Positions 5,504 to 61,558 of a DNA stretch of 64,000 nt are shown here, piece by piece. Origin of the DNA: Candidatus Dormiibacterota bacterium (lineage in GTDB: Bacteria > Chloroflexota > Dormibacteria > Aeolococcales > Aeolococcaceae); NCBI GenBank assembly GCA_963709585.1, contig CAVPXI010000014.1:352001-416000 (forward strand), read 5' to 3'. Made by a program: the position numbers and the translations under genes. The notes under the pieces were generated by a model. That model was not told the origin of the DNA, made no database searches, and saw nothing but the letters and a program-made list of their open reading frames with translations. Position 1 is the stretch's first letter; every line of letters begins with the position of its first letter.

Positions 5504-7087
5504 CTAGTCCGACGCCGAGGTTCCGGCGGCCTCGGCCGCGTATCGCGGGAGGTGGACGTCGTCCGACCCTGCGAAGCGCATCGCCCCGGCGACGAGGTGA
5601 TGTCCGGCGACTTCGTCGATGAGCCGGAGCATCTCCTGACAGATCTGCCGGTAGCTCGGATGCCCCTGCGGAGACGTGCGCAGCTCGATGAGATGCATGG
5701 CCTCGCGCGCATTGAGCTTGATCACGTATCGAACACGGTGGCCGAGCGTGACCAGATAGCCGGCCTGCTGCGGAAAGACGTCGACGATCTCGCGGTACGC
5801 GGCCTCCGCCTCCCGGACGGCGACGTGCCAGCGCTCCCCCAGTCCGGCGTCGACAACCGCGTCGGGGACCTCATACCCGAGCGACGGGGTCAACTCCTGC
5901 CACTGAATCGTGAGCATGCGGTGGCGTTGCAGATCGCGGAACGCGCCGTAGTCGGACACGACCTCGAAGGTGTAGTCGCAGTGCTCGAAGCCGCGTCCCG
6001 GCCGGTGGCGCCGGTTGCCCCGGTGCCCGACGGCCGCGGCGAAGAGCGCCGCCCGCCGAGGCGCCGAGAGCGGGCGCACCGCGGCGAGCAGCCGCTCCTG
6101 GGACGCGTGCGAGTAAGGGAAGAGCGCCGACGCGAGGATGCGATCCTCGCCGTCGCCATCCCACTCGACCAGGGTCACGCCCGTCGGCCCCCACTCGTTC
6201 TCGGGGGCGAGCAGGTCGGCATCGCGGGCGATGGCGGCCGCCGTCTCGCGCAGGTATTCGACCCAGACCCCGCCCCGATCCGGGCGATCCAGCCGGGTCA
6301 GGAACTCCGGGATCAGCCGCTGCAACTCGACGTTGACCAGCTCCGCGTACGCGCGCGCCTCGGGAAGCGGGTGGGCACGCAGACGGAGCACGAGCTGCTC
6401 GTACGCCTGTGGCGATGCGTACATCCCGACGTTGCTGACCGTCCCTGCCGGAAGCAGCCCGCGCATCAGGTCGAGCGCGAGCGCCCGGATCGCTCGCCGG
6501 CGCGCCCTCTCGTCGGCTTCGGGCGGCAGGGTCTCGTCGAGGTGCCGCGCGAGCGGCTCGCGCAACTCCGAATACGTGTCGAAGAGCAGGTCCATCGCCC
6601 GGACGTAGGTCGTCCCCAGCGGCGATGCGAGCAACTCCCGGTCGCGCAGATACCGGTAATGACCGTCGCGGCGATCCGTGTACGGGATGTATCGCGTCGA
6701 CTGCTCCAGGTACGCGGCGAGCCGCCCCCACTCGATTGCCTTGGCGAGCGGCTGGGAGACCTGCTCGCAGGCGAGATGCACACCCCCGAGCTGCGCCACC
6801 GAGTTGTCGCCGTACTCGGCGAGCACGCGTCCGAACAGATCCGAGGCACGCTCGCGTCCGGCGCCGGCATCAACCGCTGGATCGCGGGTGGCGCCGGCAA
6901 GAAACTCGTCGACCAGGAGCCGCCGAAGGCTCTTCGCGCTGCGGCTGTAGCGTGCGAAGAGGGCCGCCGCGGTCACCTGGGGCAGGTTGGTGAGGGCGAA
7001 CACGGGGCGATCGAGGTTGGTCACGTGGGGGGCGAGCAGCCGCTGCTCCTCCGCGGTGAAGGCCTCGACGTGGTAGTCCGCGATCAT
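5504..7087 (-). CDS. thyX: FAD-dependent thymidylate synthase, long two-domain form
   Basis: ALFARYSRS, YGD(D)SVAQL, YLEQSTRY, FRDLQRHR, NARE..HLIELRT..QGHPSYR. Confidence 0.9.
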   Translation of the reverse strand: MIADYHVEAFTAEEQRLLAPHVTNLDRPVFALTNLPQVTAAALFARYSRSAKSLRRLLVDEFLAGATRDPAVDAGAGRERASDLFGRVLAEYGDNSVAQLGGVHLACEQVSQPLAKAIEWGRLAAYLEQSTRYIPYTDRRDGHYRYLRDRELLASPLGTTYVRAMDLLFDTYSELREPLARHLDETLPPEADERARRRAIRALALDLMRGLLPAGTVSNVGMYASPQAYEQLVLRLRAHPLPEARAYAELVNVELQRLIPEFLTRLDRPDRGGVWVEYLRETAAAIARDADLLAPENEWGPTGVTLVEWDGDGEDRILASALFPYSHASQERLLAAVRPLSAPRRAALFAAAVGHRGNRRHRPGRGFEHCDYTFEVVSDYGAFRDLQRHRMLTIQWQELTPSLGYEVPDAVVDAGLGERWHVAVREAEAAYREIVDVFPQQAGYLVTLGHRVRYVIKLNAREAMHLIELRTSPQGHPSYRQICQEMLRLIDEVAGHHLVAGAMRFAGSDDVHLPRYAAEAAGTSASD

Positions 7088-7166
7088 CGACGCAACTCTA
7101 CGGATCGGCGCGGCGAGCCAGCACCCGGGTGGAGCGGTTTGCGATCTCGTCTACAATCCCGGCCCA

Positions 7167-8477
7167 ATGGCCGGCGTCGCCGTCCCGACCCCGCGCTTTC
7201 TCGCCGACGTCTACGAGGCGGCGAGCGAGTGCAACAAGTGCTCGCTGTGTCAGGCCACGTGCCCGGCATACGTCGTGAACCCGGTCGAATGGGAGACGGC
7301 TCGAGGACGCATCGCGCTGATCCGGGACGCGATGGAGGGTCGCCTCGAGTTGCGCGACATCGCCGACGGACCGCTCTCGAGCTGTCTGACCTGCGACAAC
7401 TGTGTCGCCGCCTGCGCTCCTCGCGTCCCGACCGGTCACATCGTCAGCCGCGCGCGCCAGGAGCTGCACGCGCAGGAAGGCTATCCCTGGGCGCAGTCCT
7501 TCGCGCTCCGCGGCGTGCTCCCGCGACCGGCCGCGCTCCGCGCCCTCCACGGATTCGCACGTTTCACACGGCGCACGGGGTTGTACGGCCTCGCGCGCCG
7601 CAGCGGTGTGCTGTCCTGGTTCGGGACCGTGGGTGCGCTGGCCGAGCAGGGCGGCCCGCCACCGGACCGAACCGTGTACCAGATGCTCGGCGACCTGCCG
7701 GCGCCCGCGCAGCCGTCGCGCGGAGACGTGGCGATGCTGGTGTGCTGCCTGGCGAATCTGACTGCGCCGGAGGCAACCGACGCGACCATCCGAGTGCTGC
7801 TCGCGTCCGGGTATGACGTCCACGTCCCGGTGCTGGGCTGCAGCGGACTGCCCGCGCGCACGCTCGGCGACCGCGATGCGATGGTGGACATGGCGATCAG
7901 GAACAGCGCGGTGTTGAGCCATATCGAAGTCGACGCGTACATCGGTGACACGGCGTCCTGCACGGAGCACTATCGCGAGTACGGGAGCATCGCCGGCGAT
8001 GATCGCCAGGTCGGCGCGCGCGCTCGCGAGGTGGGGCACCACACCGCCCTGGCAAGCGATTTCCTCGATCGCAACGGGGTACGCGGCGAGCTTGGTCCGC
8101 TGCGCTGGCGCGTGACCATCGACGAGCCGTGCGCTCTGCCGATCGACGGACCCGAGCGCGGCGCGATGCGGCGCCTGCTCGATCAGATCCCGCATCTCGA
8201 GGTCGTGCCGCTGCACGAGCGGGCGATGTGCTGCGGCGGCGCGGGCACCTACTTCGCGCGCCAACCCGAGCGCAGCGAGGCGATCCTCCAGCGCAAGTTC
8301 GACAACATCCGCGCCAGCGGGGCGGAGATCGTGGTCACCGAGAACATCTCCTGCCTGCTGCAGCTGCGCGCCGGTGCCGCGCGCTATGCATCCGACGTGA
8401 AGGTCATGCACGTCATGGAAGTGGTGCTCGCGTCCCTGCAGGGCGCCGAACGTCGACGCGCCGTGCTCGCAAGCTAA
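7167..8477 (+). CDS. Fe-S oxidoreductase, GlcF/glycolate oxidase iron-sulfur subunit family
   Basis: Two CxxCxxCxxxC motifs (CNKCSLCQATCP; CLTCDNCVAAC) and a CCG domain (MCCGGAG, TENISC). Confidence 0.88.
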   Translation: MAGVAVPTPRFLADVYEAASECNKCSLCQATCPAYVVNPVEWETARGRIALIRDAMEGRLELRDIADGPLSSCLTCDNCVAACAPRVPTGHIVSRARQELHAQEGYPWAQSFALRGVLPRPAALRALHGFARFTRRTGLYGLARRSGVLSWFGTVGALAEQGGPPPDRTVYQMLGDLPAPAQPSRGDVAMLVCCLANLTAPEATDATIRVLLASGYDVHVPVLGCSGLPARTLGDRDAMVDMAIRNSAVLSHIEVDAYIGDTASCTEHYREYGSIAGDDRQVGARAREVGHHTALASDFLDRNGVRGELGPLRWRVTIDEPCALPIDGPERGAMRRLLDQIPHLEVVPLHERAMCCGGAGTYFARQPERSEAILQRKFDNIRASGAEIVVTENISCLLQLRAGAARYASDVKVMHVMEVVLASLQGAERRRAVLAS

Positions 8478-9223
8478 CCGAGGGCGGACAGCGCCTCGTC
8501 GACATCCATGGCGATGCACGTGAACGACGGCACGTCGCGCACGGTGTGGGTGGATGCCTCGCTCGCTCGCATCTCGTGCACGAGGTCGAGGAAATCCGCA
8601 ACCGAATCGCTCTCGAAGGCCACGACGAACTCCTGGTCGTCAAGTCCGAACGAGTAGGTGGTGTTGATCTTCACCCCGGGGTACTTGTGGCCCATGGCGA
8701 TGTGCTCGCTCATCTGTCGCTGCCGCTCGTCGGCGCTCAGCCGGTACCACGCGCGGGTCTTCACGAAAGGATAAACGAAGAGGTAGCGACGCCCGGTGGG
8801 GGCGATAACCAGGCGGTTGCTCCTCCCCTCCTGGTTGTCGTGACGGTGCTTCTCGACGTACATGCTCTGCTTGGTCATCGAGAAATAGCTGTACGGCGAT
8901 TCGAGATACGCGGCGAGCCGGGTTCGGTTGAGGCGGGCGGCGAACTCGTGAAGATCGTCGAGACGCTCGCTGACGAGCCAGAGGAGGAAGTCCGCATCGC
9001 CACGCGTGCCAACCGTGCTGTACGAACGGATGAGCACGCCTTCACGGTCACCGATCTCACGAACCAGCGCGGCAACCTCCTCGCGATCAGCCGCTCGCTC
9101 GGTGGCGGGTCGGAGGCGCCACTCCGGGCGTACGCGGTAGAAGGCGAAACGGATGTGCTGACGCGCCATCGGCACCGGTGCGGTCGCATCCCGAACGGTC
9201 AACGGTGCGCTCACCTCGGACAT
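8474..9223 (-). CDS. Chlorite dismutase family protein, probable coproheme decarboxylase (ChdC/HemQ)
   Basis: YSTVGTRGDADFLLW, FVYPFVKTRAWY, EH..MGHKY, NTTYSFGLDDQEFVVAFE. Confidence 0.85.
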   Translation of the reverse strand: MSEVSAPLTVRDATAPVPMARQHIRFAFYRVRPEWRLRPATERAADREEVAALVREIGDREGVLIRSYSTVGTRGDADFLLWLVSERLDDLHEFAARLNRTRLAAYLESPYSYFSMTKQSMYVEKHRHDNQEGRSNRLVIAPTGRRYLFVYPFVKTRAWYRLSADERQRQMSEHIAMGHKYPGVKINTTYSFGLDDQEFVVAFESDSVADFLDLVHEMRASEASTHTVRDVPSFTCIAMDVDEALSALG

Positions 9224-9271
9224 GACGCGGTCATCGTACCCGAGGGGTTGCGCCGGGCGACAGGCGCCGCG

Positions 9272-9773
9272 TCACCGGTCCCCGCGCAGCGCCTCGGCGA
9301 GCGCGCGCTTGCGCAGCAGGCGCTGCTCCCGGCGCACCCGCGCCTCGGCCTGACGGCGACGCTCCTCCTCGGTCACCGCGATGACCTTGGCAACCTCGGC
9401 GGGTCTGCCGTCGCGATCGAGGCCCACGTAGACGAGATGCGCGCTGGCCACGTGCAGCTTCTCGCCGGACGGGATGCGCTCGACGTCGACGCGGACACTG
9501 ATCTCCATCGAGGTGTGGTGCGCGTCATTGACACGCGCATGCACGGTGAGCAGGTCGCCGATGTACACCGGAGCGAGAAAGCTCATCTCGTCCATCGTGG
9601 CGGTCACGACGCGGCGCCGAGCGTGCTTCACCGCAGCGATGCCCGCCGCCGTGTCGACGAGTTCGCATGATCGTGCCCCCGTGCACGTAGCCCGAGTTGT
9701 TGGCGTGCTCGATCTCCATGGCCACCGACAGCAGCGTCGCCGACTCCGACGTCGGCCGCGGTGTGAGATCCAC
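9272..9773 (-). CDS. Acyl-CoA thioesterase (hotdog fold); apparent 1-nt frameshift near 9660
   Basis: HANxxGYVHGGTIM in one frame continues as RLVDTAAGIAA..RRVVTATMD..F..PVYIGD after removing one base at GAGTTC 9659-9664. Confidence 0.85.
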
Positions 9774-13930: not shown

Positions 13931-14717
13931 TCAGACGTTACCCGATGAAAGCGGGAGCCAGCGGGCCGCGACGATGGTCACGTTATCAGTCCCCCCGCCC
14001 GCCAGAGCGGCGTCACAGGCGCGGGTCAGCGCGACCCCGAGGGGGTCGGGCGTGGCCACGATCGCACCCAGGGCCTGATCCGAGAGCGGTTCCCAGAGGC
14101 CGTCCGAGCACAGCAGGAGGACGTCCCCCGCAGCCGCGTCGACGTCGAAGATGTCGGCTTCGACCGGGTCGCCCATCACCGCTCGCTCGATGAGATTGCG
14201 TTTCGGGTGATGGCGCGCCGCCTCCGCGTCGAGGGCACCGAGGCGGACCTGACCCGCGGCCCAGGAGTGATCTTCGGTGACCTGGGTCACCCCGGAGCTG
14301 CTGATCAGATACACACGGCTGTCGCCCACGTTGGCGACCGAGGCACGGCTGCCGCTGATGATCGCCAGGATCAAGGTCGTGCCCGGGTTGCCCCCGATCG
14401 ACTTCGCGGGCGAACGCCACCGCGTCGTTGGCGGCGGCGACAGCCCGGCGCAGCGCGCCCGCCGCGTCGCTGGCGGGCTCGGCGTCCAGCAGCGTCGCCA
14501 TCGCCGCCGTCACGGCCGCCTCGGCTGCCTCGAGGCCGCCTTTGTGACCGCCCATCCCGTCGGCGAGGGCGAGCAACGCCGTTCTCCCACCCGCCCTGAT
14601 GTGCGCATCCCAGACGTCCTGGTTCTGTGTGCGCACCGGGCCGCGGTCGGTGATCCCGGCGATCTCGAGTGCCTCACCCTCGCCGGCGATCGACCGCGCA
14701 GCGCGGTCGGCGGTCAC
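13931..14717 (-). CDS. PP2C-family Ser/Thr phosphatase; apparent frameshift near 14400
   Basis: TDRGPVR..NQD, ADGMGGH; then GTTL, NVGDSRVY, TEDHS, LLCSDGL, GGTDNVT after removing one base at GACTTC 14400-14405. Confidence 0.9.
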
Positions 14718-15428
14718 GCCCCCGCCCCGGCCTCGGCAGCGGCAGGATGACCGAGCAGGCGGCGCACCACCTCATCGGCGACGGCGACCGGGTCCAGGCA
14801 CTGGATCGTCTGCATGCCGAGGGCGTCCGCCGCCTCGACGTTGCAGAGCAGGTCGTCGATGAACAGACAGCGCTCCGGCCCCACGCCGAGCAGGCTGCAC
14901 GTCAACCGGTAGATCTCCGGATCCGGCTTGCGCATCCCGACCTTCGATGAGTTCGACCACCACGTCGAAGAGCTCGTCGACGGGGAACAGCTTGCTGAAG
15001 ATCGCCTCCCCCTCGCGTGAGATGTTGGTGAGCAGAGCCGTCCGGTATCCGGCGTCGCGGATCTGGCGGACGGCGTCCGCCATGGCGCCGCACGCGACCA
15101 TGCCGCGGCCGAAGACTGCCTGCTGCGCCTCGCGCGGATCCACCGGCTCGTTGCCGGCGGCGACGTAGCGGGCGGTCATCCGGTCGAAGAACTCGTCGTC
15201 CGAGATCTTGCCCATCTCTAGCAGGTGGAGGTCGTGGGCACCCGTGGTCAGGTGGTAGTGGTCGCGGAACTCGCCGAGAAAGAACGCGATCAGGCCGAAG
15301 TACTCGGGGGGCACATCGGTTCGGTGGTGGAAGAGGGGCTCGGTCATCACCCCGCCGAGATCAAAGATCACGGCGTCGAACTCGCGAGCGGAGGTGACCT
15401 GCTCAGAGGTTGTCTGCGGTTTTCTCAT
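14714..15428 (-). CDS. HAD family phosphatase; apparent frameshift near 14950
   Basis: VIFDLGGV, ALLTN, then RKPDPEIY and FIDD..NV..A..LGM in the next frame. Confidence 0.9.
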
Positions 15429-15466: not shown

Positions 15467-16406
15467 ATGCTGGTTCTCAGCAGGCACGACGTCGAGGGTC
15501 TGCTCTCCGTGCCGGCGATGCTCGACGCCCTGGAGGCTGGATTTCTCGCCTACTCGACGGGTCGGGCGTCGGTGCCGCCGCGCACCGCGGCGCGTGCGCC
15601 GTCGGGCCTGCTCGGCGCGATGCCCGGCTGGGTTGCCGAGCGGGGCCTCGCGCTCAAGGCGGTCACCGTCTTCCCGGGCAACGGCGAACGCCGGCTTCCG
15701 ACCCATCAGGGGGTGATCACGCTCTTCGACGAGCAGGACGGCTCGCTGCTGAGCGTCATGGACGGCGAGCACATCACCGCGATGAGGACGGGTGGCGGCG
15801 CGGCCGTGTCGGTTCGGGCGCTCGCCCGATCCGATGCGAAGACGCTGACCATCCTCGGTGCCGGGGTGCAGGGCCACTCCCATCTCGCGACCGTGCCCCA
15901 GGTTCGAGACTTCACGAGCATCCGCATCTGCTCGCGTGACCCGGACCGCGCTGCGGCGCTGGCCGCCGCCGATCCGCGCTGCACGGTGCTGTCGGGGTTC
16001 GAGCAGGCGATCCGGGGCGCCGACGTCGTCTGCTGCTGCACCGACGCGAGGGAGCCGATCACCCGCTACGACTGGTTTGACGCCGGCACCGCATGTCACC
16101 TCGGTGGGAGGGACGTTCGGGCCCGAGGTCGATGCGGACACGGTCCGCCTCGCCCGCGTGTTCGTCGAGTGGAAGGGTGCCGCCGAGAGCGCGCCGCCGG
16201 CCGGTGCTCACGAGTTGCAGGGACGGGACGCGGCAACGATCACGGAGGTTGGTGAGGTGCTCGCCGGGCTGAAGCCGGGGCGGCAGAGTGACGCCGAGAT
16301 CACCCTGTACAAGTCGACCGGGAGCGGTTTTGAGGATGCCGTGGTGGCTCGGATCGTCTATGACGCCGCGGTCGCCGCAGGAGTGGGCACGGAAGTCGCG
16401 CTGTGA
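15467..16406 (+). CDS. Ornithine cyclodeaminase/mu-crystallin family protein; apparent frameshift near 16090
   Basis: MPG, LKAVTVFPGN, ITAMRTG, GAGVQG; HVTSVG and TLYKSTG..ED in the next frame. Confidence 0.9.
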
Positions 16407-21837: not shown

Positions 21838-23041
21838 CGCCGGGCGACCTCGCGGTCACGGAGAGCGGCGACCCCTGGGAGCGTCCTCCCCTCGAGGAAT
21901 TCGAGGGTGGCGCCGCCGCCGGTGCTGATAAAGCCGATCTTGTCAGCAACGCCCGCGTCCTGGACGGCGGCGGCGAGGTCGCCCCCGCCGATCACGGTGG
22001 TCGCCTTGGAGGCCGCCACTGCGCGCGCCACCTCACGTGTGCCCGCGGCGAAAGCCGGAATCTCGTAGATGCCCAGCGGCCCGTTCCAGATGATCGTCCC
22101 GGCACCGGCACAGTCGGCGGCGATGCGCGCCACCGTGTCCGGCCCGGCGTCGACCACCATCCAGCCCTCGGGGATCGCCTTCCAGGCGACGACCTGCGTC
22201 GGTGAGCCGGCGGCGGCTCGCTCCGCGACGACCCCGTCGACCGGGAGACGGAGGTCGGCGCGGCGTCCTTGCGCCGAGTTCGAGAAGACGGCGTGCTGTG
22301 GCCACCTGCTCCTCTTCCACGAGCGAGGTGCCGGTGCTCTCCCCGAGCGCGCGGTAGAACGTGCACGCCATCGCGCCACCGACCCAGAGCACATCGACGC
22401 GATCGAGGAGGTGGTCGAGCACGCCAACCTTGGTCGAGATCTTCGAGCCGCCGACGATGGCCACGACCGGGGTGCGCGGGTTGTCCATGACACCACCGAG
22501 CATCTCGAGCTCGCGAGCCATCAGCCTGCCGGCGACCGCCGGCAGCAGGTGGGCAACGCCCTCAGTGGAGGCGTGGGCGCGGTGGGCTGTCCCGAAGGCG
22601 TCGTTCACGAAAACATCCCCAAACGCGGCGAGCTGCTTCGCGAACTCCGGATCGTTCGCCTCCTCGCCCGGCTCGAAACGGACGTTCTCGAGCATGCCGA
22701 CATCGCCGTCACGCAGCGAGTTCGACCATGCTCCACGCGCTGTCGCCCACGACATCCGAGGCGAGACGGACATCGGCGCCGAGCAGGTCGCTCAGGCGCG
22801 CCGCGATCGGCCCGAGGCGAGCACTGTCGTCGATCCTGCCCTTGGGGCGCCCCAGATGCGCGACCACGATCACCCGCGCGCTTCTGTATCGGAGCGCTTC
22901 GATGGTGGGGATCGCCTCTCGGATTCGGCGATCGTCGCTGATGGCGCCGTCGCGCATCGGCACGTTGAGGTCCTCGCGCAGGAGGACCCGCTTGCCGTGC
23001 ACGTCGATGTCGTCGATGGTTGCCTTCGACACCGATGCCAC
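21834..23041 (-). CDS. pgk: Phosphoglycerate kinase; two apparent frameshifts (near 22720 and 22278)
   Basis: DLNVP, HLGRPKG / [27 protein letters not shown] / [23 protein letters not shown] over three frames, joined by removing single bases at two GAGTTC sites. Confidence 0.95.
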
Positions 23042-24076: not shown

Positions 24077-24956
24077 TCAGGTGATTCGGCGCCGCTCGGG
24101 GCGCGCTCTCACCCTATCACCGCCCTCACCCGCCGCGGCGATCAGACGGTGGAAGCGGCCGGCCATCGCGGGACGGCTGCAGCCGGCGCGTTCCGCCAGC
24201 TGCGCCAGGTCGTCGTCCGGATGGCGGGCACGAAGCGCCGCCGCCTCCCGCAGCGCCGGCGGCAGCGCGAGCCAGCGCGCGGGATCCGCCTCCAGGACGG
24301 TGATCGAACTCGACCTGGCGGACGCCGGCCACGGCGCTCCTGCGCAGGTTCGCCGTCTCGGCGTTGAGCCGGCGGTTGACCCCGCTGCGGACCTCGCGGA
24401 TCACCCGCCCCGACTCGAAAGTGAGGCGGCCGGCCTGCGCTCCGATGGAGCTCAGCGCCGCCCCTACCGCGGCGCCGGAGCGCACCGTCACGACCCACCT
24501 CCCGCGACGCAGCCGCATCTGCGCGCCGATGCCCAGAGTTGCGAAGTCGGCGACCAACTGGACGGCGGCATCCTCGTCCGCGCAGCCGACTTCGAGATAC
24601 GGCTCTCCATCGGGCCGAACCAGCCGTCCCGCACCCAGAAAGGCCCCCCGGAGGCGGCTCCGCGTGCAGCACGTGCGGGTGGACCGCGTCTGCACCACCT
24701 CGGGTTCGATACCGACCAGGACGTATTGCGTGCGCCGCGCCGCTCCGACCCTCGATACGTGCGCGGTGATCCGCTCGGCATGCAGCGCCTGCATCGCGGC
24801 TCGCACTGCGGCGGGACGCGTGGTGGCGATGGCGCCTGGCGTCGAAGTCACCAGCGCCAGTCCGTCGACGAGAGCGCGCCGGCAGCATGGGAGGAGCGGC
24901 GTGTGTGGGGCAAGCTCCGCGACGACGCGATTCGTGAAGGATTGGGCCGCATCCAT
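24077..24956 (-). CDS. whiA: DNA-binding protein WhiA; apparent frameshift near 24308
   Basis: CC..S.LRGAFL.AG, VNRRLNAETANL.RS; C-terminal HTH (LPPALREAA.LR..HPD..L.QLA) in the shifted frame ending at TGA 24077; position upstream of gap. Confidence 0.88.
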
Positions 24957-24996: not shown

Positions 24997-27900
24997 TCAC
25001 GCCGGACGCCTCTCATTCCATCCGGCAACCAGCTCCAGCGCGTGGATCACGCATGCGGGTGCTCCCTTCTGCTCGTAGCAGTCGACGGCGCGCCGGGTTT
25101 CGGCTTCAAACTCGTCGAGCTTCCCGGCGAGATACAGGACCTCCGCCATCGTGAGCGCGGCATCACCTTGCACCAGCGGTGCCTGCGTCGATCTGGCCAG
25201 CTGGTCAGCCTGCTTCGCAAGGCTGAGCGCCGCGCCGCTTTGGCCGCGCCGCGCGAGCAGCTTGGCGCGAAGCTGCAAGCCCATCGTCTGAGTCAGCACA
25301 TCATCAGTGCCGCCGTGCTCGAGGCCAAGCGTCGCCCAGCGCTCCGCCTCCTCAAACCGGCCCAGCGCATACATCGTCTCACCGAGCTGGCACTCCTGGG
25401 TTGAGAGCCAGGCGCGCTCGCCGAGTTGTTCGAGCTGTTCGATGCCCGATAGCGCGACCCGCTCCGCGCCTGCGAAGTCACCCGCGAGGGTTTCGATCCG
25501 CCACCCCGTCTGCATCGAAATCGCGGCCAACGTCACCATTCCTCGTTCACGCACCTGCTCAACCGTGGCATCGAAGAGGGATCGGGCGTCCTCGTACTGC
25601 CCACAGGACGCGAGGATATCCGCCATCCACACGCCGTGCAGGGGTTGATAGATGGGGCTCGCCGCATCCGTCGTCTCCAGCCAGAGCAGCGCTTCAGCGG
25701 CCGGAAGTCGGCCCATTCGCGACCGCTGCCGCCGCCACCCCCTGAGCATTGCGTGCCAACCAGAGCTTCCCCGCATTCGTTGCGTACGTAATCGAGCGCG
25801 TCAGCGACTCCAGCGAGACCTCGAAGCGGCAGCAGTAGTGATCGACAAATCCGGCCGCCAGCTCGAGCATTGCCAGGGAACCATCGTCGCCGCTGCGCTC
25901 GATCTCCGGTCGAGCCTCCGCCACCAACTCCCCGAGAGCGCTGTCATTTCCGGTGGGATCGAGGTTGGTCCGCCATATCGCACCGATCAGCTGTATCTGG
26001 AGCTGGCCGATGCGATCACCGGTTGCGGCAAGCGCATCAGCTGCCGTCTCCGAGCGTGCGACTGCCTCGTTCAGCCTGCCGGACATGGCGAGCCCCTGAA
26101 TGAGCGACTCTTCCAACGCCACGTCGATCGTGTGCACCGGCCGAAGCACTTCGGCCCGCTCCAGAAGGTTCACCGCCGCTGTCGTATCGCCACGGTCGAG
26201 CGCCCGGCGACCCGCGGCCTCGAGGTGGATTGCGGCGGCTCTGCCCAGAGCCCGCGCCTGCTCGTCCGCCGGACCGAGCTCGGTGCGGTAGCGGAACGCT
26301 TGCTCGAGGTGGTAGCCCGCGATCTCGTCGAGCTCCTCGAGATCGCGCCCGCGTTGCTCGAGCCACCCGGCAAAGCTGGCATGCAGCTCGGCTCTGTTCG
26401 CTTTCGGCAGCGAGTCGTATGCGGCGTCGCGAATGAGCAGGTGCCGGAAGGCGAAGGCGTCCTCGCCGGCGAACACCGGTCGGTCGGGGCGCAGGAGATC
26501 CTTGCGCACCAACGTCATAAGCTGTCCCGCCACGTCGGGCGCATCGGGCGCCATGACCTCGACCGCACCGCGATGAAAGGACTGGCCCTCGACCGAACCG
26601 CGCTCCAGCACGCCGCGTTCCTCCGGTCGCAGCTGATCGAACCGAGCCGCCAGCAACGCTTTGATGGTCGGCGGCACGATGACGTCGTGGCTGCTCGACT
26701 CGCGGACCATGGCGACGATCTCCTCCAGGAACAGCGGATTCCCCGCAGCCGTGGTGCGAATCCGTACGCGAAGTTGCGGATCGAAGGAGCCCGCCGGCCG
26801 GCAGCAACTCGTCGATCAATGCCTCGGTTTCGTCGGCGTTGAGCGGCTCCAGGAGCACCGTGGTGGCGTTGAGCTTGCCGCCCCCCCAGCCTGGCCGGCG
26901 ATCGAGGAGCTCGGCCGGCCGAGACAGAGCACGAGGATTGGGGTGCCGCGACTCAGATCCCCGATGTGCTCGATGAGGTCGAAGAGAGTCGGCTCGCCCC
27001 AGTGCACGTCGTCGAAGACGACGACGAGCGGATTGCTGTCCGCAGCGCACTCGAGCAGCTTGCGAACGGCCCACGCGATCTCGGTCGATGATATGGCCGC
27101 GATATGCTCGCCGAGCAGCGTTCGGATCGCCGCCGAGACGTTTCCGTCTCGCTCCATCAACTCGGCGGCTGCCGATCCCTCCGACGCCGCCAGCAACTGT
27201 CTCACGATAGTGATCACCGGCCAGTACGTGATGCCCTCGCCGTACGAGAGACAGCGGCCGCGCAGCACGGTGGCATCGACGCCGCGCAGGAACTCGGCGG
27301 TCAAGCGCGATTTCCCGACGCCCGCGGCGCCGAGGACGGTGAACAGGCTGCACGACCTGCCGTCGATGACGTTGGCGAACGCGTCGCGAAGCATCCGCAG
27401 CGGTGTGCCGCGCCCGACCATCGGGGTCTCGACCCGGGGCGATGTGGCCGAGCGTCGACGCCAATGTGCAGCAGCCTGTACGCGGGCACCGGCTCACTCT
27501 TTCCCTTGAGCTCGAGCGGTGCCAGCGGCTCCACGGTCACCGCGTCGCGCACCAGTCGCCACGTCTCCGGACCGATGACGATCTCCCCCGGCGCAGCAGC
27601 CTGCTCGAGGCGCGCGGCGACGTTGACGGCGTCCCCGGTCGCGAGGCGTTCCTCGGTTCCGGTGACGACCGGACCAGTGTTCACGCCGGTGCGCACCGTG
27701 ACCGTGGTTCCGTAGTCGCGTGCGAGCTCGCTGTTCAAGTCGGCGAGGGCATCACGCAGTCCGACAGCCGCGCGGACGGCGCGCAACGCATCATCCTCGT
27801 GCAGAACGGGCACGCCGAACACCGCCATGACCGCATCGCCGATGAACTTCTCCACGGTCCCGCCATGCTGCTCGATGACCTTTCGCGCGGCGTCGAAGTA

Positions 27901-28098: not shown

Positions 28099-35884
<7,786 letters not shown>

Positions 35885-35888
<4 letters not shown>

Positions 35889-42759: not shown

Positions 42760-43607
42760 TCAGACCGCGGCCGCGGGCGCGGACGGCGGGCTCGAGACGC
42801 GCCGCCGCACCGGGCGCAGGAAGAGCGTCAGCCCCACCCCGAGGAAGGCCGCCCAGAGGATCGCCTGGAGTACCGTCGGCGCGGCGCTGTAGCCGACCAA
42901 CCCGTGCAGTACGTCGCCGATCCCGGTGTTGTCGGGAAGTGTCCCGCTCATGTTCCAGAGGGTCATCGAGCCGCCCGGAAGGACCCCGAGCCCCTGGAGG
43001 ATCTGCACGGCGTCCGCGAGCAGGCCGGCGGCGACCACCATCAGCAGGCTGCCGACGACGGCGAAGAAGCGGCCGAGGTTGACGCGCACGCCGACGCGAT
43101 ATATCGCGAAGCTCACCGAGAGCGCGATGGCGAGACCGATCACCGCACCGATCACGAGTTGGAGCGGCGAGCTCTGGTATGCGATGGCGATCAGAAAGAT
43201 CACCGTCTCGACCGCCTCGCGCCCGACGGTCACGAACGCGATGAGACCGAGAGCGATGCCGGAGCCGCCACGCACCGCCTCGGAGACGCGCTCGCGCAGC
43301 TCTCGCCCCATGTTCCGGCTGTTGCGCCGCATCCAGAAGGTCATGTAGGTGAGCACGCCGACGGCGACCGCGAAGACGCCGGTCTCGAACCAGGCCTGCG
43401 GGGTCGAGTCTTGACGAACGCATCGCCGCTGGCGATCCAGAGCACGATCCCGGCCGCCGTGGCCAGCACGACGGCGGCGCCCGCACCGAGAAACACGTAC
43501 CGGAAGAGCTCGCGATGCCCCGCTGCGGCGAGGCAGGTCAGCAGGATCGAGCAGATCAGGGTGCCCTCGAGCCCCTCTCTCGCAAAGATCAGCAGGCTTC
43601 CGACCAC
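42760..43607 (-). CDS. FTR1/EfeU family iron permease; apparent frameshift near 43410
   Basis: Two RExxE motifs (AREGLEG; GREAVET) and a multi-TM pattern across two frames. Confidence 0.9.
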
Positions 43608-50577: not shown

Positions 50578-52409
50578 CTATTCCACAGTCACCGATTTCG
50601 CGAGGTTGCGCGGCTGGTCGACGTCGCATCCCCGCTGCACGGCGACGTGATACGCGAAGAGCTGCAGCGGGATGACGTTGATCAGCGGCGAGAACACCTC
50701 CGAGCAGGCGGGCACCGGCACCGTGGTCGCGAACCCGGCGTCGAACGGATCCTCGCCCTCGGTGACGAGCGCGATCACCGGCGCATCGCGCGAATGCACC
50801 TCCTGCACGTTGCTCACCATCTTCGGGAGCGTCGCCGAGCGAGTGGCGATGGCGATCACCGGGACGTCGGGCTCGAGCAGCGCGATCGGTCCGTGCTTCA
50901 GCTCGCCCGCCGCGTATCCCTCCGCGTGCACGTAGGAGATCTCCTTGAGCTTGAGCGCGCCCTCCATCGCGATCGGGAAGTTGATACCCCTGCCGATGTA
51001 CAGCGCGCTGTGCGTGTGCGCGAACCGCTGGCCGAGCTCGACGAGCATCGGTTCGAGCTCCAGGGTCCGCGCCAGGAGGGGGGCAGGCTCTGCAACTCCG
51101 CGACCAGTCGCTGATGCTCGCCGACATCCAGCGTCCCGCGTGCATCACCGAGACGAAGTGCGAGCAGCAGACCGCACACCATCTGAGTCATGAAGGTCTT
51201 GGTGCCGGCGACGGAGATCTCCGGTCCGGCCTGCATGTAGAGCGCGCCGTCGGCCTCGAGTGGCAATGCACTCCCGACAACATTCGTGATTGCGATGACC
51301 TTGGCGCCGGCCCGATGCGCCTGCCGCACTGCCGCAAGCGTGTCGGCAGTCTCACCCGACTGCGACACCGCGATCACCAGTGAATGCGCATCGACGAGCG
51401 CTTCGCCATACCGGAACTCGCTCGCCGCCTCGACCTTGCAGCGAATCTTTGCCAGATGCTCGATTGCGTAGCCGGCGACCATCGCCGCATACCAGGCCGA
51501 TCCGCACGCAACCAGGACCACCTCATGCACCTCCGCGAGCTGGTCGTCATCCATCCCCAACTCGGGCAGCACGACCATCCCCATGTCATCGATGCGGCCG
51601 CGAAGCGCGTTGCGCACCGCCTCGGGCTGCTCGTGAATCTCCTTCAGCAGGAAGTGCGGAAAGCCGTTCTTCTGCGCCTGCTCCGCCTCCCAGTCGACGG
51701 TGACGATGCGCGCCTCGACGGCGGTGCCGTCGAGCTGTTGCACAGTGATCCCCAGAGGGGTGGCGGTGACGATCTCCCCTTCGCCGAGCAGCGCGATCCG
51801 CTTGGTGTACGGGATCAAGGCGGTGATGTCGCTGCTCACGAAGACCTCGCCGCGTCCGAGTCCGACCACGAGCGGGGCGTTCATCCGTGCGCCCACCACG
51901 CGGTCGGGCTGATCCGCGGAGATGACCACCAGGGCGCACGCACCCTGCATGCGGTTGAGCGCACTCCGAACGGCGCTCGCGAGATCGCCGTGGAAGGCGT
52001 CTTCGATGAGATGGGGAACGACCTCGGTGTCGGTCTCGCTCAGGAACTCGTGCCCGCGCGACATCAGCTCGGCCCGCAGCTCGCGATAGTTCTCGACGAT
52101 GCCGTTGTGAATGACGTGAATGCGCCCGGTGCAATCCTGGTGCGGATGCGCGTTCTCGAGCGACGGACGGCCGTGCGTCGCCCAGCGCGTGTGCCCGATG
52201 CCGACGGTGCCGGACGGCGTCCCCTCGGCTTCGACCTGGCGGGCGAGGTCAGCGACCTTGTTGGTGTTCTTGACCGTCGCGACGTCGCCGTCCGCATCGA
52301 TGATCGCGATCCCGGCCGAGTCGTAGCCTCGATACTCGAGACGGCGAAGGCTGTCGAGCAGCACGGGCGCCGCGGGGCGGGGGCCGGTGTAGCCGATGAT
52401 GCCGCACAT
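50578..52409 (-). CDS. glmS: Glutamine-fructose-6-phosphate transaminase; apparent frameshift at a C homopolymer near 51080
   Basis: MCGIIG, LEYRGYDSAG, GHTRWATHG, SQSGETADT; EGALKLKEISY and DQPRNLAKSVTVE in the next frame. Confidence 0.96.
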
Positions 52410-54284: not shown

Positions 54285-55228
54285 GCGGCGACCTCGAGGC
54301 CGTTGCCCGCGTAGATGAGGGCGAGGAGAGCCTGCTGGACCCAGAGGCGGTTCTCCGCCTGGTCGAACACGACCGAGTGAGGGCCGTCGATCACCGCGTC
54401 GGTGATCTCCTCACCGCGGTGCGCCGGGAGGCAGTGCATCACCCGGACCCCCGGCGGCGCGAGCGCAACCAGGCGGTCATTCACCTGCAGAAAGGCGAAG
54501 TCCTCGCGCCGGCGCTGCTGCTCGGTTTCCTGGCCCATGCTGGTCCAAACGTCGGTGTAGATGATTTCGGTATCGCGCAGGGCCGGTGCCGCGTCGTGGG
54601 TGATGTCGAAGCCGGTCCCCGGCGCCCGCATGCCGGCGGCCCTCTCGACAACGGCGGGTGGCGGCTCATAGCCGCGTGGGCAGATCACCCGGAGGTGCAC
54701 CCCGAGCAGCGCCGCGGCATAGATCCAGGACGTGCAGACATTGTTCCCATCACCGATGTACGCGACCGTGGCGCCCGCGAGCCGCCCGGTGGTCGATCGC
54801 ACGGTCATGCAGTCGGCAAGCACCTGGCATGGGTGCTCGGCGTCGGTCAGCGCGTTGATCACCGGAGCCGCAGCCGCGCCGGCGATGGCGACCAGATCCC
54901 GGTGCGAGACCACCCGCGCGACGATGCCGTCCGCGTAGCGGTCGAGGATCCGGCTGATGTCCGCAGCCAACTCGCGCTCGCCGAGCTGCACCTCGGGGTT
55001 GAAGAGCGCGATCGGGTGACCGCCGAGACGGTGGATCGCCACCTCGAAGGACACCCGGGTCCGGTTGCTCGGGCGCTGAAAGATAAGCGCGAGCGATCGG
55101 CCCGCGAGCGGGCTGCCGAGATCCCGGCCCGACTTGGCTTCGTCGGCCAGATCGAGGACCGCGATGATCTCGTCGGCGGTGAGGTCCGCGATGCTGAGAA
55201 GGTCGCGGCCGGCGAGAGAAGGGCTCAT
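54281..55228 (-). CDS. argF: Ornithine carbamoyltransferase
   Basis: PSNRTRVSF, HPCQ.LAD, GDGNNV, YTDVWTSMG, HCLPAHRGEE, QAENR. Confidence 0.95.
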   Translation of the reverse strand: MSPSLAGRDLLSIADLTADEIIAVLDLADEAKSGRDLGSPLAGRSLALIFQRPSNRTRVSFEVAIHRLGGHPIALFNPEVQLGERELAADISRILDRYADGIVARVVSHRDLVAIAGAAAAPVINALTDAEHPCQVLADCMTVRSTTGRLAGATVAYIGDGNNVCTSWIYAAALLGVHLRVICPRGYEPPPAVVERAAGMRAPGTGFDITHDAAPALRDTEIIYTDVWTSMGQETEQQRRREDFAFLQVNDRLVALAPPGVRVMHCLPAHRGEEITDAVIDGPHSVVFDQAENRLWVQQALLALIYAGNGLEVAA

Positions 55229-57327: not shown

Positions 57328-57339
57328 TGGTCGGGTGCC

Positions 57340-58644: not shown

Positions 58645-58752
58645 CTCCGCCTACCGTACCCGACGGCCCCGCTGACCGGGTGGATACCGTGCCGACCGCG
58701 TAGATTAGAGAGTGGCATCGAGAGGGATCGCCAACACGCATCGGGAGACACC

Positions 58753-59830
58753 ATGGCAACCGCAACCCTTCCCGCCACCGAAACCGTGGAGCAGTTGCTC
58801 GGCGACGAGGCCTCGTCCCTGCTCGAGCACCAGTGCGAGACGGTGCCGAACACGATGCTGCATCTTCCGGGGCCGGATTTCGTCGACCGCATCTGGACCG
58901 GGACCGATCGCTCGAACCAGGTCCTCCGCAACCTGAGCAGCATCTACGCCCACGGCCGTCTGGGTGGCACCGGGTACGTCTCGATTCTCCCGGTGGACCA
59001 GGGCATCGAGCATTCCGCAGGGGCATCCTTTGCACCCAACCCCGAGTATTTCGACCCCGGAAAGATCGTCGAGCTCGCGGTCGAGGGGGGCTGCAACGCG
59101 GTGGCCTCGACCTTCGGCGTGCTCGGCGCGGTGTCGAGGCGGTGGGCACATCGCATCCCGTTCATCGTCAAGCTCAACCACAACGAGCTGCTCACCTACC
59201 CAAACGGCGCGGACCAGATCCTGTTCGGCACCGTCAAAGAAGCCTGGAATCTGGGAGCCGCCGCGGTCGGCGCCACCATCTACTTCGGCTCGGACGGGGC
59301 TGACCGGCAGATCGTGGAGATCTCGCGGATGTTCCACGAGGCGCACGAGCTCGGCATGGCCACGATCCTCTGGTGCTACCTCCGCAACCCGGCCTTCAAG
59401 AAGGACGGTGTCGACTACGCACTCGCAGCTGATCTCACCGGCCAGGCGAACCACCTCGGGGTCACCATCGAGGCCGACATCATCAAGCAAAAGCTGCCGA
59501 CCACCAACGGCGGATTCACGGCGCTGAAATTCGGCAGGACCGCGGATGCCGTCTACACGAAGTCTGACGTCTGATCATCCGATCGATCTCTGTCGCTACC
59601 AGGTGCTCAACTGCTACTCCGGACGGGTCGGGCTCATCAACTCCGGCGGCGAGTCCAACGGGGCGGCCGACCTGGCTGAAGCCGTGCGTACCGCCGTGAT
59701 CAACAAGAGGGCGGGCGGGACCGGGTTGATCACTGGTCGCAAGGCATTCCAGCGACCGATGCGCGACGGCGTGCATCTGCTCACCGCGGTTCAGGACGTC
59801 TACCTGAACCAGAAGGTCACGATCGCCTAG
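58753..59830 (+). CDS. fbaB: Class I fructose-bisphosphate aldolase (DhnA/FbaB); apparent frameshift near 59560
   Basis: [30 protein letters not shown]; DHPIDL.RYQV and NKRAGG.GLI.GRKAFQ in the next frame. Confidence 0.93.
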
Positions 59831-59844
59831 CCGCGCCGACGGAC

Positions 59845-60345: not shown

Positions 60346-60357
60346 GCCCGCGCAAAG

Positions 60358-60792: not shown

Positions 60793-61037
60793 AGGGCACG
60801 TCTGGCCCTGATCGCGTCGCGCTCCCGACGCAGCACCCGAGGCGATGGCACCTCCATCAGCGGCGCCCGCAACACTGCACCGAGAGCCGCTCGCCGCTTT
60901 GCGGAGCTGCCGGGATAGCGGTCATCGATCGCCTCGCGCACGAGCGTGCTGACCGAGACACTCCGACGCTCAGCTTCGCGCTCGAGCCGCGCCCAGAGGC
61001 TTTGATCGATCAGAACCTGAAGGCGGCGATCCAACAT
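60789..61037 (-). CDS. RHH/CopG-type antitoxin (VapB)
   Basis: RRLQVLID..L..EA.RR.VSV..LVREAID; GTGA overlap with the PIN gene. Confidence 0.85.
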   Translation of the reverse strand: MLDRRLQVLIDQSLWARLEREAERRSVSVSTLVREAIDDRYPGSSAKRRAALGAVLRAPLMEVPSPRVLRRERDAIRARRAL

Positions 61038-61055
61038 GCTCATACATTAGCATGT
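61034..61055 (-). promoter_or_regulatory. Operator inverted repeat over an extended -10 promoter of the TA operon
   Basis: ACATGCT-N8-AGCATGT covering TGcTAATGT and the ATG at 61037. Confidence 0.7.
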
Positions 61056-61127
61056 CGCCGCAAGAGCGGCCCGTGTGCAGGGTGGCGGCCGTTACTTCGG
61101 CCCACACCGACGAAGCGCTGGTGGCGC

Positions 61128-61558
61128 CTATTTCGCTCCGGTCACGGGAGTCAACAATCCACGCTCCTGCACCCATAGCGCCAGTTCGGCCCGAAGTCGA
61201 TGGTCAGCTTGTTGTATATGTGCTGAACGTGGTTGTCGATGGTGCGTTCCGAGTTGAACAGCCGGCTTGCGATCTCCTTGTTGGTCTTGCCCTGGGCAAC
61301 CAGGATTGCCACCTCGACCTCCTTCCGGGTCAGCGGGTAGACCCCCGGACGTCCCGGTTCTGCATCCGTTGCCGGGAGCTGAACCGCTGCCGGCGGACGC
61401 GCGTGCAACAGTCGCGGCGACAGCTCACCGAACAACAGGACCGCCCCGCCTGCGAGCAACGCAAGTGACCAAGCCACGCCCAGCGCGAGGTTTGCCAGCA
61501 CCGTCACCGCTGCGATTGCGGGGACGGCGACGCGGCCAAGCGCCGGAGGGGACGACAT
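61128..61558 (-). CDS. Membrane-anchored LuxR-type HTH regulator (2 TM + GerE HTH); apparent frameshift near 61195
   Basis: Two hydrophobic helices, LTRKEVEVA.LVAQG.TNKEIA..L..SERTIDNHV; the canonical SRAELALW tail is restored by adding one base. Confidence 0.82.

Follow-up and report, generated by a model that had tools for sequence, protein, structure and literature searches.

Introduction

Systematic consensus errors at short methylated words are an artefact already known from Oxford Nanopore assemblies. GATC and GANTC are error motifs in nanopore assemblies of pathogens (PMC12392509), and the available part of an agrobacterial study names GANTC, an m6A motif, together with short palindromes, as error motifs of nanopore assemblies, where three basecalling models gave 359, 159 and 104 GANTC error occurrences for a single strain (PMC12710330, Table S5). 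In the available part of a preprint, G-to-A is the most raised substitution around methylated motifs on R10 (10.64898/2026.01.14.699587). The errors that we describe here resemble these cases in that they pile up at one short word genome-wide, depend on lineage, include G>A/C>T calls and are missing from other kinds of assembly. However, they are mainly one-base insertions rather than substitutions, they affect only the GASTC half (GAGTC/GACTC) of GANTC and spare the other half, GAWTC, and their host is uncultured and Dormibacterota-like rather than a proteobacterium, with the modification deduced from the assembly.

Among the CcrM/M.HinfI N6-adenine methylases of GANTC, drift in middle-base specificity is known, with GAWTC, GADTC and GAHTC variants in marine Alphaproteobacteria, and a GASTC-only specificity was not found in the available part of that source, where GASTC is the unmethylated half (PMC8919816). 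The candidate enzyme of the present lineage, MT2, is like these enzymes a solitary beta-class methylase kept through a whole lineage, with GA.TC as the core word. It is nevertheless no orthologue of CcrM (76.9 bits against a cut-off of 830), is without the C-terminal part, has DPAY rather than DPPY as motif IV, and carries a longer loop after that motif. The Type IIS GAGTC systems (PleI, MlyI, N.BstNBI) recognise the same word, GAGTC/GACTC, for which both strands would need methylation; unlike in those systems, no nuclease gene was found among the inspected neighbours of MT2 or of a second methylase, MT1. What is new here is the GASTC-only motif, the Dormibacterota-like lineage and the candidate enzyme. 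The practical consequence is that many seemingly broken genes of an uncultured soil bacterium should be read as intact, the word at which they break being most likely chemically marked.

Materials and methods

The window is the whole stretch of DNA analysed, 64,000 nucleotides of genome G000, probably a nanopore-only assembly; other G numbers denote relatives. Frameshifts were checked against the syntenic DNA of four congeners (G004, G007, G010 and G011) and by Pfam matches on the gene pieces. Few-contig relatives served as a proxy for long-read assemblies, the technology of each assembly being judged from contig number alone. Genome-wide, 267 candidate frameshifts were compared with 586 ordinary gene junctions, a word being scored as near when it lay no more than 30 nt away.

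Results and discussion

Frameshifts and substitutions in the window

An initial annotation had reported about 16 apparent frameshifts in the window, 11 of them at GASTC, and four substitutions. Its quoted letters matched at all 15 coordinates, and our recount agreed with the total. Eight of the 11 proved to be clean one-base A/T doublings inside GASTC, and those at 43406, 59559 and 61193 were non-canonical.

9659..9664, minus strand: GAGTTC, one surplus T/A, 4HBT-type thioesterase gene; +1 against 4/4 congeners, with a frame switch and Pfam 4HBT on the downstream piece
14400..14405, minus strand: GACTTC, one surplus T/A, PP2C phosphatase gene; +1 against 4/4 congeners, PP2C_2 profile divided between two pieces (9-73 / 95-181)
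14949..14954, minus strand: GAGTTC, one surplus T/A, HAD hydrolase gene; +1 against G007 and G004 (GAGTC there), Hydrolase profile divided between two pieces (2-146 / 151-191)
22276..22281, minus strand: GAGTTC, one surplus T/A, second break in pgk; GAGTC in G007, G010, G011 and the metagenome contig L152, PGK profile 103-238 / 247-379 on two pieces
22718..22723, minus strand: GAGTTC, one surplus T/A, first break in pgk; +1 against 4/4 congeners, GAGTC in L152, PGK profile 1-98 / 103-238 on two pieces
24306..24311, minus strand: GAACTC, one surplus A/T, whiA; GACTC in G004, G007 and G010, the same GAACTC in G011, WhiA domains divided between the pieces
25704..25709, minus strand: GAAGTC, one surplus A/T, TPR-repeat protein gene; +1 against 4/4 congeners, no Pfam family common to both pieces among their Pfam matches
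31064..31069, minus strand: GAACTC, one surplus A/T, ligA; +1 against 4/4 congeners (GACTC in 3), adenylation, OB and ZBD domains on one piece, HHH_2 and BRCT on the other
43406..43413, minus strand: GAGTCTTG, two surplus bases just after an intact GAGTC, FTR1 iron permease gene, non-canonical; +2 against G004, G010 and G011, FTR1 profile 2-60 / 73-268 on two pieces
59559..59564, plus strand: GAAGTC, one surplus base, DeoC/LacD-family aldolase gene, non-canonical; +1 against 4/4 congeners, DeoC profile 2-169 / 191-229 on two pieces; because all four congeners read AAG-CTG, the surplus base may be T, and GAGTC was not necessarily the original word
61193..61198, minus strand: GAAGTC, a -1-type (or +2) break with no simple doubled A/T, near the 3' end of a LuxR-family gene; three-frame reading, GerE profile ending at 46 of 57, no congener aligned there

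At 14949, 22276, 24306 and 31064, relatives thus carry the intact GAGTC or GACTC at the exact place. By Pfam, pgk lies in three consecutive pieces, and ligA, whiA and four other genes lie in two pieces each. Five further breaks are off-motif.

13928: +1 break
16089..16091: +1 frameshift, no GASTC word; one base fewer in 3 to 4 of 4 congeners
26913..26916: -1 frameshift, no GASTC word; one base more in 4/4 congeners
near 27440-69: break of ambiguous type
51079..51082: -1 frameshift in a G run; one base more in 4/4 congeners

Three of the four substitutions, at 6801, 35768 and 54969, were supported outright by the relatives and the fourth, at 38829, in part; a fifth, at 32409, is absent from the initial annotation.

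6801..6805, minus strand: GAGTT against GAGTC in 4/4 congeners, Asp to Asn in a ThyX-domain protein (a weak thyX match)
32409..32413: AACTC against GACTC in 3 congeners, Ser to Leu in ligA
35768..35772: AAGTC (GACTT on the minus strand), Cys where Arg is expected after GSGKT in pcrA; Arg encoded in 4/4 congeners
38829..38833: AACTC, Ser to Leu in an asparagine synthase gene, the least certain; GACTC in 2/4 congeners (G010 and G004), GATTC in G007, the window's AACTC in G011
54969..54973: AACTC against GACTC in 4/4 congeners, Ser to Leu in argF (ornithine carbamoyltransferase)

Genome-wide enrichment and proposed mechanism

The genome-wide comparison of GASTC with GAWTC that had been suggested gave a clear result. 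In an unbiased k-mer test of the whole genome, GAGTTC/GAACTC lay within 30 nt of 114 of the 267 candidate frameshifts (10.3 expected) and GACTTC/GAAGTC within that distance of 30 (8.2 expected); among the 586 ordinary gene junctions, 23 and 13 lay near these words, respectively. The direction was nearly uniform, with one surplus base in 112 of the 114 candidates and the other direction in 2, and the motif-free candidates split 60 to 68. Counted per occurrence over the whole genome, 119 of 2519 GAGTTC and 31 of 1993 GACTTC were near a +1 candidate, and for seventeen other words the proportion was 0.12-0.85%. The words derived from GAWTC stood at background near +1 candidates genome-wide (GAATTC 1/439, GATTTC 3/896), in keeping with the earlier remark that GAATC/GATTC are spared, and the remark that most sites are followed by G held as well (82 of 118 cases, against a background of 47%). 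The errors were indifferent to gene strand, the word lying on the same strand as the gene in 63 and on the opposite strand in 55 of 118 occurrences, and the approximately 155 events were evenly distributed over the genome (47 bins of 64 kb, mean 3.0, variance 2.8).

We propose that these are long-read (nanopore-type) consensus errors arising at double-stranded GAGTC/GACTC, where a modification particular to the lineage would alter the signal that this k-mer produces. In the assembly, either the A:T pair of motif position 2/4 is doubled, giving GAGTTC or GACTTC, or the outer C:G pair is called as T:A, giving GAGTT or GACTT. The likeliest mark would be N6-methyladenine at the A of GASTC on both strands, and its likeliest writer the candidate enzyme MT2. 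We consider this explanation as a whole to be probable.

Proposed modified base and candidate enzyme

We infer the modification of the site, the modified base and the writing enzyme from the pattern of errors and from the methylase genes. The assembled sequence cannot itself tell which base is modified, because the two strands describe each event differently: an additional T ahead of the final C corresponds, on the complement, to doubling of the A at position 2, and a C>T call to G>A beside that A. Given a modification, we favour m6A as the mark; m4C is an unlikely choice, and any other mark somewhat more so.

The initial annotation had placed the mark on the terminal C of GASTC on both strands, as 4mC, 5mC or another modification, unlike the usual m6A. 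In the available part of the preprint, the strongest R10 G-to-A enrichment is indeed at a 4mC-associated motif (10.64898/2026.01.14.699587). That C is also the base substituted (C>T at 6801, with the complementary G>A at 32409 and 54969) and the extra T lies directly before it, but the other strand reads a doubled A with an adjacent G>A, so that the position of the errors favours neither base. Likewise, the beta class PF01555 includes N4-cytosine methylases and two PF01555 enzymes are present; yet these two shared enzymes, MT1 and MT2, are beta-class amino-methylases whose motif IV is Asp-first (DPPF and DPAY). To our knowledge, an Asp-first versus a Ser-first motif IV separates adenine from N4-cytosine methylases as a general rule. 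The N4-cytosine enzyme N4CMT has the Ser-first SPPY and CcrM has DPPY, in the available part of PMC10406627, and the GANTC-type methylases in that of PMC8919816 are all m6A. The only Dcm-type (5mC) methylase occurs in 1 of 12 congeners and was not found in the error-bearing G004, G010 and G011, and the type I system was found in 0 of 20 relatives. Both the Asp-first motifs and the distribution of the Dcm-type gene thus tell against a mark on the terminal C, which we regard as unlikely.

The preferred mark, m6A, is the one to which the distribution of MT2 (G000:C7:586185-586976, solitary, beta-class, motif IV DPAY) points, since the footprint follows this enzyme, which is kept across the family: 65 of the 76 family genomes carry it, against 0 of 44 in the sister family, and 9 of 9 orthologues with a correct frame retain DPAY. 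MT1 is also present in G027 and G022, which are event-free, and therefore does not track the errors. That MT2 is the responsible enzyme has, in our judgement, an even chance. The MT1 and MT2 genes stay at one place throughout the genus, like housekeeping genes, with AhpC-TSA_2, acyl-CoA dehydrogenase, Methyltransf_11 and MMPL genes as neighbours. The DPAY of MT2 is a non-canonical motif IV. A mark of m6A on every GANTC word, as in CcrM hosts, would leave the silence at GAWTC to be explained by the basecaller.

Lineage dependence of the errors

If the basecaller or polisher handled (C)GAGTC(G) poorly, errors would arise with no need of DNA modification. The strong dependence on the flanks, with an error rate of 8.1% at CGAGTCG, the commonest context, against approximately 0.7% at GGAGTCN, is typical of k-mer-specific miscalls, and the doubled base makes a two-base homopolymer. 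Against this, 28 long-read-style MAG loci of other lineages, of similar G+C (246.5 kb, 383 GASTC sites, 108 of them CGASTCG), contained 0 events, a comparison that assumes shared technology. On the same assumption, there were 0 events in 366 kb (493 GASTC sites) of the two few-contig members of the same family without MT2, G027 (182 kb) and G022 (184 kb). These two genomes, which as relatives are not independent, are poor in frameshift candidates of any kind (3 in G027 and 2 in G022), so that a less error-prone technology could account for their silence, in which case the MT2 comparison would carry no weight. In four other genera, few-contig members with MT2 had 2 (G030), 6 (G101), 3 (G102) and 5 (G042) events per 100 kb. 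The errors are thus specific to a lineage and not a general habit of the basecaller, which makes a basecaller weakness on its own improbable. We therefore retain modification of GASTC, which had been suggested before and which would be lineage-specific, as the best explanation and a likely cause of the errors.

Artefact versus real gene breaks

The breaks might also be real, for example through a mutational hot spot at GAGTC (such as nicking and mis-repair) in a decaying genome; the surplus bases are, after all, present in the deposited assembly, and the completeness of G000 is just 88.8%. However, pgk would be broken twice and ligA and whiA as well, and the events occur evenly throughout the genome. 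Moreover, each few-contig congener has its own private events, alike in form but placed elsewhere (2, 5 and 4 events in 72 kb each of G004, G011 and G010; 3 and 12 in 200 kb each of G003 and G006), and the many-contig congeners, which carry the same methylases, have none (G007 in 64 kb, G001 in 200 kb and G009 in 90 kb, 354 kb in total; MT2 is present in all three), so that the errors go with the type of assembly as judged from contig number. Both pgk insertions are absent from the public, conspecific metagenome contig L152, which represents another strain of a 96%-identical population and includes 2 of the 11 sites: over 925 columns (96.1% identity), the only 2 gap columns were the surplus T at 22279 and 22721, and the PGK frame of L152 was unbroken, its profile matching in one stretch (17-323). 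Real mutation is accordingly very improbable, and the apparent gene breaks are almost certainly assembly artefacts, as the initial annotation had held. It is the insertion or miscalling of a single letter at GAGTC/GACTC in the assembly that makes the genes look broken, and they should therefore be read as intact.

Programmed +1 ribosomal frameshifting or other recoding at GAGTTC would agree with the near-uniform direction of the shifts (112 to 2). It has a negligible probability, given that the surplus base is lacking from the genes for the same proteins in relatives, and is refuted by the strand count of 63 on the gene strand to 55 opposite.

Genome-wide distribution of frame breaks

The initial annotation had proposed that frameshifts in the window cluster at GAGTC and GACTC (together GASTC). 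We examined the entire source genome, G000 (GCA_963709585.1; 3.52 Mb in 24 contigs, about 67-68% G+C, 88.8% estimated completeness; 8000 bases of contig C23 stood as N in the sequence analysed), in which the window is C14:352001-416000, using a codon model trained on 497 long high-GC3 frames and a seven-state Viterbi path, which gave 909 same-strand frame switches. A switch was termed a frameshift candidate when the upstream frame remained open for more than 30 nt beyond it (n = 267), and an ordinary gene junction when it fell at a stop codon (n = 586); in a comparison of longest open frames with one base removed, spurious long frames were plentiful at 68% G+C. When all 5-mers and 6-mers around the candidates were tested, the top-ranked word was GAGTTC/GAACTC, which had 114 of the 267 candidates within 30 nt of it (10.3 expected) but just 23 of the 586 junctions. 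For GACTTC/GAAGTC, 30 of the 267 candidates were nearby (8.2 expected). Shifts in the GAGTTC class were +1 in 112 cases and -1 in 2, and in the GACTTC-only class they were +1 in 23 and -1 in 2; the motif-free class was divided into 60 +1 and 68 -1. The clustering at GASTC was therefore upheld across the genome, as was its distinction from GAATC and GATTC (together GAWTC).

Occurrences of words near a +1 candidate in G000
GAGTTC: 119 of 2519 (4.7%)
GACTTC: 31 of 1993 (1.6%)
GAATTC: 1 of 439 (0.2%)
GATTTC: 3 of 896 (0.3%)
17 further words: 0.12-0.85%

The flanking bases influenced the error rate, with 74 events against 845 intact sites at CGAGTCG (8.1%) and a rate of about 0.7% at GGAGTCN. Motif-linked +1 events at any distance to a stop numbered 155, and their even distribution (47 bins of 64 kb, mean 3.0, variance 2.8) ruled out an origin confined to one region, for instance an island or a stretch of low coverage. 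No second error motif emerged among the 128 motif-free candidates, where enrichments did not exceed about 3.6-fold and counts were small; many of them probably represent random indels or junctions between genes.

Comparison of the window with congeners

All of the letters quoted in the initial annotation are present in the window at their assigned coordinates. The window shares synteny with four congeners (members of the same genus; G004, G011, G010 and G007), at 78-85% identity. Relative to them, the window has one additional base at 9662, 14403, 14952, 22279, 22720-22721, 24307, 25705, 31064 and 59563, and two at 43408; GAGTC or GACTC is intact in the relatives at 14952, 22279, 24307 and 31064. 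The pieces that flank the breaks match consecutive stretches of one Pfam family, as follows.

Profile matches on either side of breaks in the window
PGK: profile positions 1-98, 103-238 and 247-379
Ligase: catalytic domains, then HHH_2 and BRCT
WhiA: the pieces on either side of the break match WhiA
PP2C_2: 9-73 and 95-181
HAD: 2-146 and 151-191
FTR1: 2-60 and 73-268
DeoC: 2-169 and 191-229

Eleven frameshift sites had been assigned to GASTC, and at eight of these the simple form, with a doubled A or T, was observed. The other three deviate from it: at 43406 an intact GAGTC is followed by two extra bases; at 59559 the reading in each of the four relatives is AAG-CTG, and the surplus base may thus be a T; and at 61193 a LuxR-type helix continues only with one more base or two fewer. 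Motif-free breaks in the window are those at 16089-91, 26913, 51079-82 (a G run), near 27440-69, and 13928. Four substitutions had also been attributed to the motif, three of which are backed by all four relatives and the last by only two.

Substitutions in the window
6801: GAGTC in 4/4 relatives; Asp to Asn in a ThyX-domain protein
54969: GACTC in 4/4 relatives; Ser to Leu in argF
35768: Arg codon in 4/4 relatives; Arg to Cys in pcrA
38829: GACTC in 2/4 relatives, with G011 having the same form as the window; Ser to Leu in an asparagine synthase

GASTC was common to at least three of the four congeners at 17 places in the window. Eight of these conserved places are intact in the window, three carry insertions, three carry an outer C>T or G>A change (including an additional one at 32409 in ligA) and three carry other changes, so that the insertions and outer changes affect 6 of the 17. 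Four control words, with 12 to 100 conserved places, had no insertions and one outer change altogether.

The pcrA gene (window 32577-35927, minus strand) encodes 1117 residues, of which residues 615-636 match the intein C-terminal splicing motif TIGR01443, and the match to the PcrA profile restarts with residue 634, at position 246 of the profile, which suggests that the helicase carries an intein insertion.

Frame breaks as a probable assembly artefact

Programmed ribosomal frameshifting or recoding would require a signal on the sense strand, and is excluded by the occurrence of the motif 63 times on the gene's strand and 55 times on the opposite one. The breaks also cannot all be real mutations in a living cell, since pgk is broken twice and both ligA and whiA are broken. 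When few contigs were taken as a proxy for long-read assembly, events in the congeners followed the type of assembly.

Events in congeners by assembly type
G004, few contigs: 2 in 72 kb examined
G011, few contigs: 5 in 72 kb
G010, few contigs: 4 in 72 kb
G003, few contigs: 3 in 200 kb
G006, few contigs: 12 in 200 kb
G007, many contigs: 0 in 64 kb
G001, many contigs: 0 in 200 kb
G009, many contigs: 0 in 90 kb

The many-contig congeners together had no events in 354 kb, and those of the few-contig congeners were at private sites of their own. Furthermore, a public metagenome contig over pgk (L152) matched the window at 96.1% identity across 925 columns, and the sole length difference between the two was the window's additional T at 22279 and at 22720-22721; both of the insertions that it covers are absent from it, and its PGK frame is unbroken. 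The lack of strand bias, the splitting of pgk, ligA and whiA, the association with assembly type and this insertion-free contig all agree with the earlier view of the breaks as assembly errors, and, judged from the assembled sequences, the frame breaks at GASTC are very probably an artefact.

The 200 kb stretch of the two-contig congener G006 (G006:C2:700001-900000; loci L121-L130) contained 59 frameshift candidates; 50 were +1, and just 12 lay at GASTC-derived words. ACGTTC/GAACGT was raised there too (7 events, about 4-fold), and this genome suffers from either low coverage or a second source of error.

Base modification and basecaller habit

Errors of this kind could reflect a basecaller's plain dislike of CGAGTCG. 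However, the GASTC footprint (frameshifts at the motif) was found at none of the 14 frameshift candidates in 28 long-read-style MAG loci of other lineages (246.5 kb, 69% G+C, 383 GASTC, 108 CGASTCG), and few-contig genomes G027 (182 kb) and G022 (184 kb) of the same family had no events. Provided that these assemblies share a common technology, their lack of such errors disfavours a simple basecaller effect, and the case that a modification would be needed, beyond basecaller habit alone, is good but not closed.

The MAG relatives nearest to one G000 protein (83-86% identity) are labelled Candidatus Dormibacteraeota or Dormiibacterota and carry 'MFD' labels; G000 would accordingly belong to an uncultured, Dormibacterota-like lineage from soil. 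In the literature, MAGs from MFD samples are described as nanopore-only Flye assemblies with one Medaka round (PMC12313526), GANTC is an error motif in nanopore assemblies (PMC12710330; PMC12392509), and the substitution most raised around methylated motifs on R10 is G-to-A (preprint 10.64898/2026.01.14.699587). This type of artefact is already known; what is new in detail is its motif, its form as an insertion, the lineage in which it occurs and the enzyme that is a candidate for it.

Three named long-read-style Solirubrobacterales MAG loci (L061, L077 and L079) held 11 of the 14 candidates in the 28 loci, none of them at GASTC-derived words; these MAGs may therefore be subject to other, private error motifs.

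Extent of misreading

We compared observed word counts with those expected from a third-order Markov model.

Observed/expected counts
GASTC: G000 0.75; few-contig congeners 0.80; many-contig congeners 0.91
GAWTC: G000 1.02; few-contig congeners 0.97; many-contig congeners 0.99

GAGTT and GACTT increased in step with the decrease in GASTC. This between-species comparison is only suggestive, and would put the misread fraction at about one fifth to one sixth of the GASTC sites in G000; it also hints that most misread sites would be substitutions, invisible to frame tests. Assembly type confounds any reading of the depletion as selection against a methylated word, since the depletion deepens from the many-contig congeners through the few-contig ones to G000.

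At least about 155 genes of the 3.5-Mb G000 assembly are falsely split, and the misread sites include silent-looking missense changes (Ser to Leu, Arg to Cys, Asp to Asn) that frameshift filters miss. As nine further few-contig members of the family have the footprint too, this lineage's completeness estimates, pseudogene counts and protein catalogues are biased, although correctably.

Candidate methylases

A search of five Pfam families identified four DNA methylase genes in G000; it found no D12-class methylase there, and an Eco57I-type match was below the cut-off.

DNA methylase genes of G000 (the presence/absence tallies, and these only, include the unpublished genomes G015, G020, G028, G034 and G105)
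MT1, C7:583318-584193: beta class, motif IV DPPF; 12/12 congeners
MT2, C7:586185-586976: beta class, motif IV DPAY; 12/12 congeners, 65/76 in the family, 0/44 in the sister family
Dcm-type 5mC methylase, C4:347709-348701: Vsr-domain gene adjoining, beside an integrase; 1/12 congeners
Type I HsdM, C10: type I; 0/20 relatives

As writers of the mark, we rejected the Type I HsdMSR on C10, present in none of 20 relatives; the Dcm-type methylase, not found in the error-bearing G004, G010 and G011; and MT1, present in the footprint-free G027 and G022. Around MT1 homologues of other lineages (80 loci, 637.5 kb), none of 16 frameshift candidates was at the GASTC motif. MT2 is absent from G027 and G022, and all genomes with the footprint carry it. 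Among few-contig genomes, which are few and mutually related and for which contig number stands in for sequencing technology, the footprint was observed in all 10 that have MT2 and in neither of the 2 that lack it. Few-contig genomes of four other genera with MT2 had 2 (G030), 6 (G101), 3 (G102) and 5 (G042) events per 100 kb. Errors of this kind reveal a probable methylation motif at no extra cost and, combined with gene presence and absence, point to a candidate enzyme in an uncultured phylum.

The DPAY motif of MT2 is conserved in 9 of 9 correctly framed orthologues, to about 60% identity (alignment of 13 rows; G030, G101, G102 and G026 were left out of this count because of a wrong frame). 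The best solved relatives of MT2 are adenine methylases, CcrM among them, and matches to PDB 6pbd had E values of 6e-18 for MT1 and 7e-17 for MT2. The motif order of both is that of the beta class, with motif IV before FxGxG. They are not CcrM orthologues, since NF050803 scores them at 75.0 and 76.9 bits, respectively, against a cut-off of 830. Motif IV is DPPY in CcrM, unlike the DPPF of MT1 and the DPAY of MT2, and MT2 (264 residues, with the alignment ending at CcrM residue 269 of 366) lacks the C-terminal DNA-binding extension of about 80 residues found in CcrM. Of the four words of GANTC, errors are seen here only at those of GASTC (GAATTC 1/439, GATTTC 3/896); as errors reveal only basecaller-sensitive sites, GAWTC may be methylated as well. 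No nuclease gene of a Type II GAGTC system was found beside MT1 and MT2, whose four flanking genes are AhpC-TSA_2, acyl-CoA dehydrogenase, Methyltransf_11 and MMPL.

The initial annotation placed the mark on the terminal cytosine. An artefact at a probably modified word was borne out, but the assignment to cytosine was not, as the error position fits the A or the C of either strand and the error-bearing G004, G010 and G011 have no Dcm-type gene. Where one strand gains a T ahead of the final C, its complement shows a doubled A at motif position 2, and C>T on one strand is G>A beside the position-2 A on the other; these readings are equivalent, so the assembled sequence cannot separate A from C. 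To our knowledge, an Asp-first motif IV denotes an adenine methylase as a general rule. In PMC10406627, motif IV is DPPY in CcrM and SPPY in the N4-cytosine enzyme N4CMT. In the passages of PMC8919816 considered, the GANTC-type methylases whose middle base has changed (GAWTC, GADTC, GAHTC) are all m6A enzymes, and a GASTC-only specificity is absent from the variants described there. Adenine methylation by MT2 would be a better bet than a cytosine mark. We propose only tentatively, and with some doubt, that MT2 might write m6A at GASTC only, as a Dam/CcrM-like epigenetic mark that mirrors the GAWTC variants of CcrM homologues. If true, MT2 would represent an epigenetic mark of an uncultured phylum, first noticed through its nanopore assembly errors. 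We know of no cultured, methylome-typed members of this phylum.

The MT1 and MT2 genes (L013) are both solitary methylase genes, 2 kb apart in housekeeping surroundings, MT2 being unusual in its DPAY motif, and their places match in the seven congeners compared. MT1 homologues of about 60% identity are common in Solirubrobacterales and Microbacteriaceae. In the few-contig congeners G006 and G008, the MT2 gene matches as two overlapping pieces (G006:C1:105962-106694 and G008:C1:969756-970524) and is probably split by an assembly frameshift. At the C4 locus (L014, 5710-8001), the Dcm-type gene is followed by a 430-residue ORF with a C-terminal Vsr mismatch endonuclease, and a tyrosine recombinase gene lies upstream; the locus is probably a mobile element, and G006 is the sole congener of the 12 with this Dcm-type gene. 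On C10 (G000:C10:3600-11200; L205), an Mrr-type nuclease gene precedes hsdM-hsdS-hsdR in an arrangement private to G000, where the hsdR frame stops after 484 residues inside the ATPase domain and so may be another assembly break.
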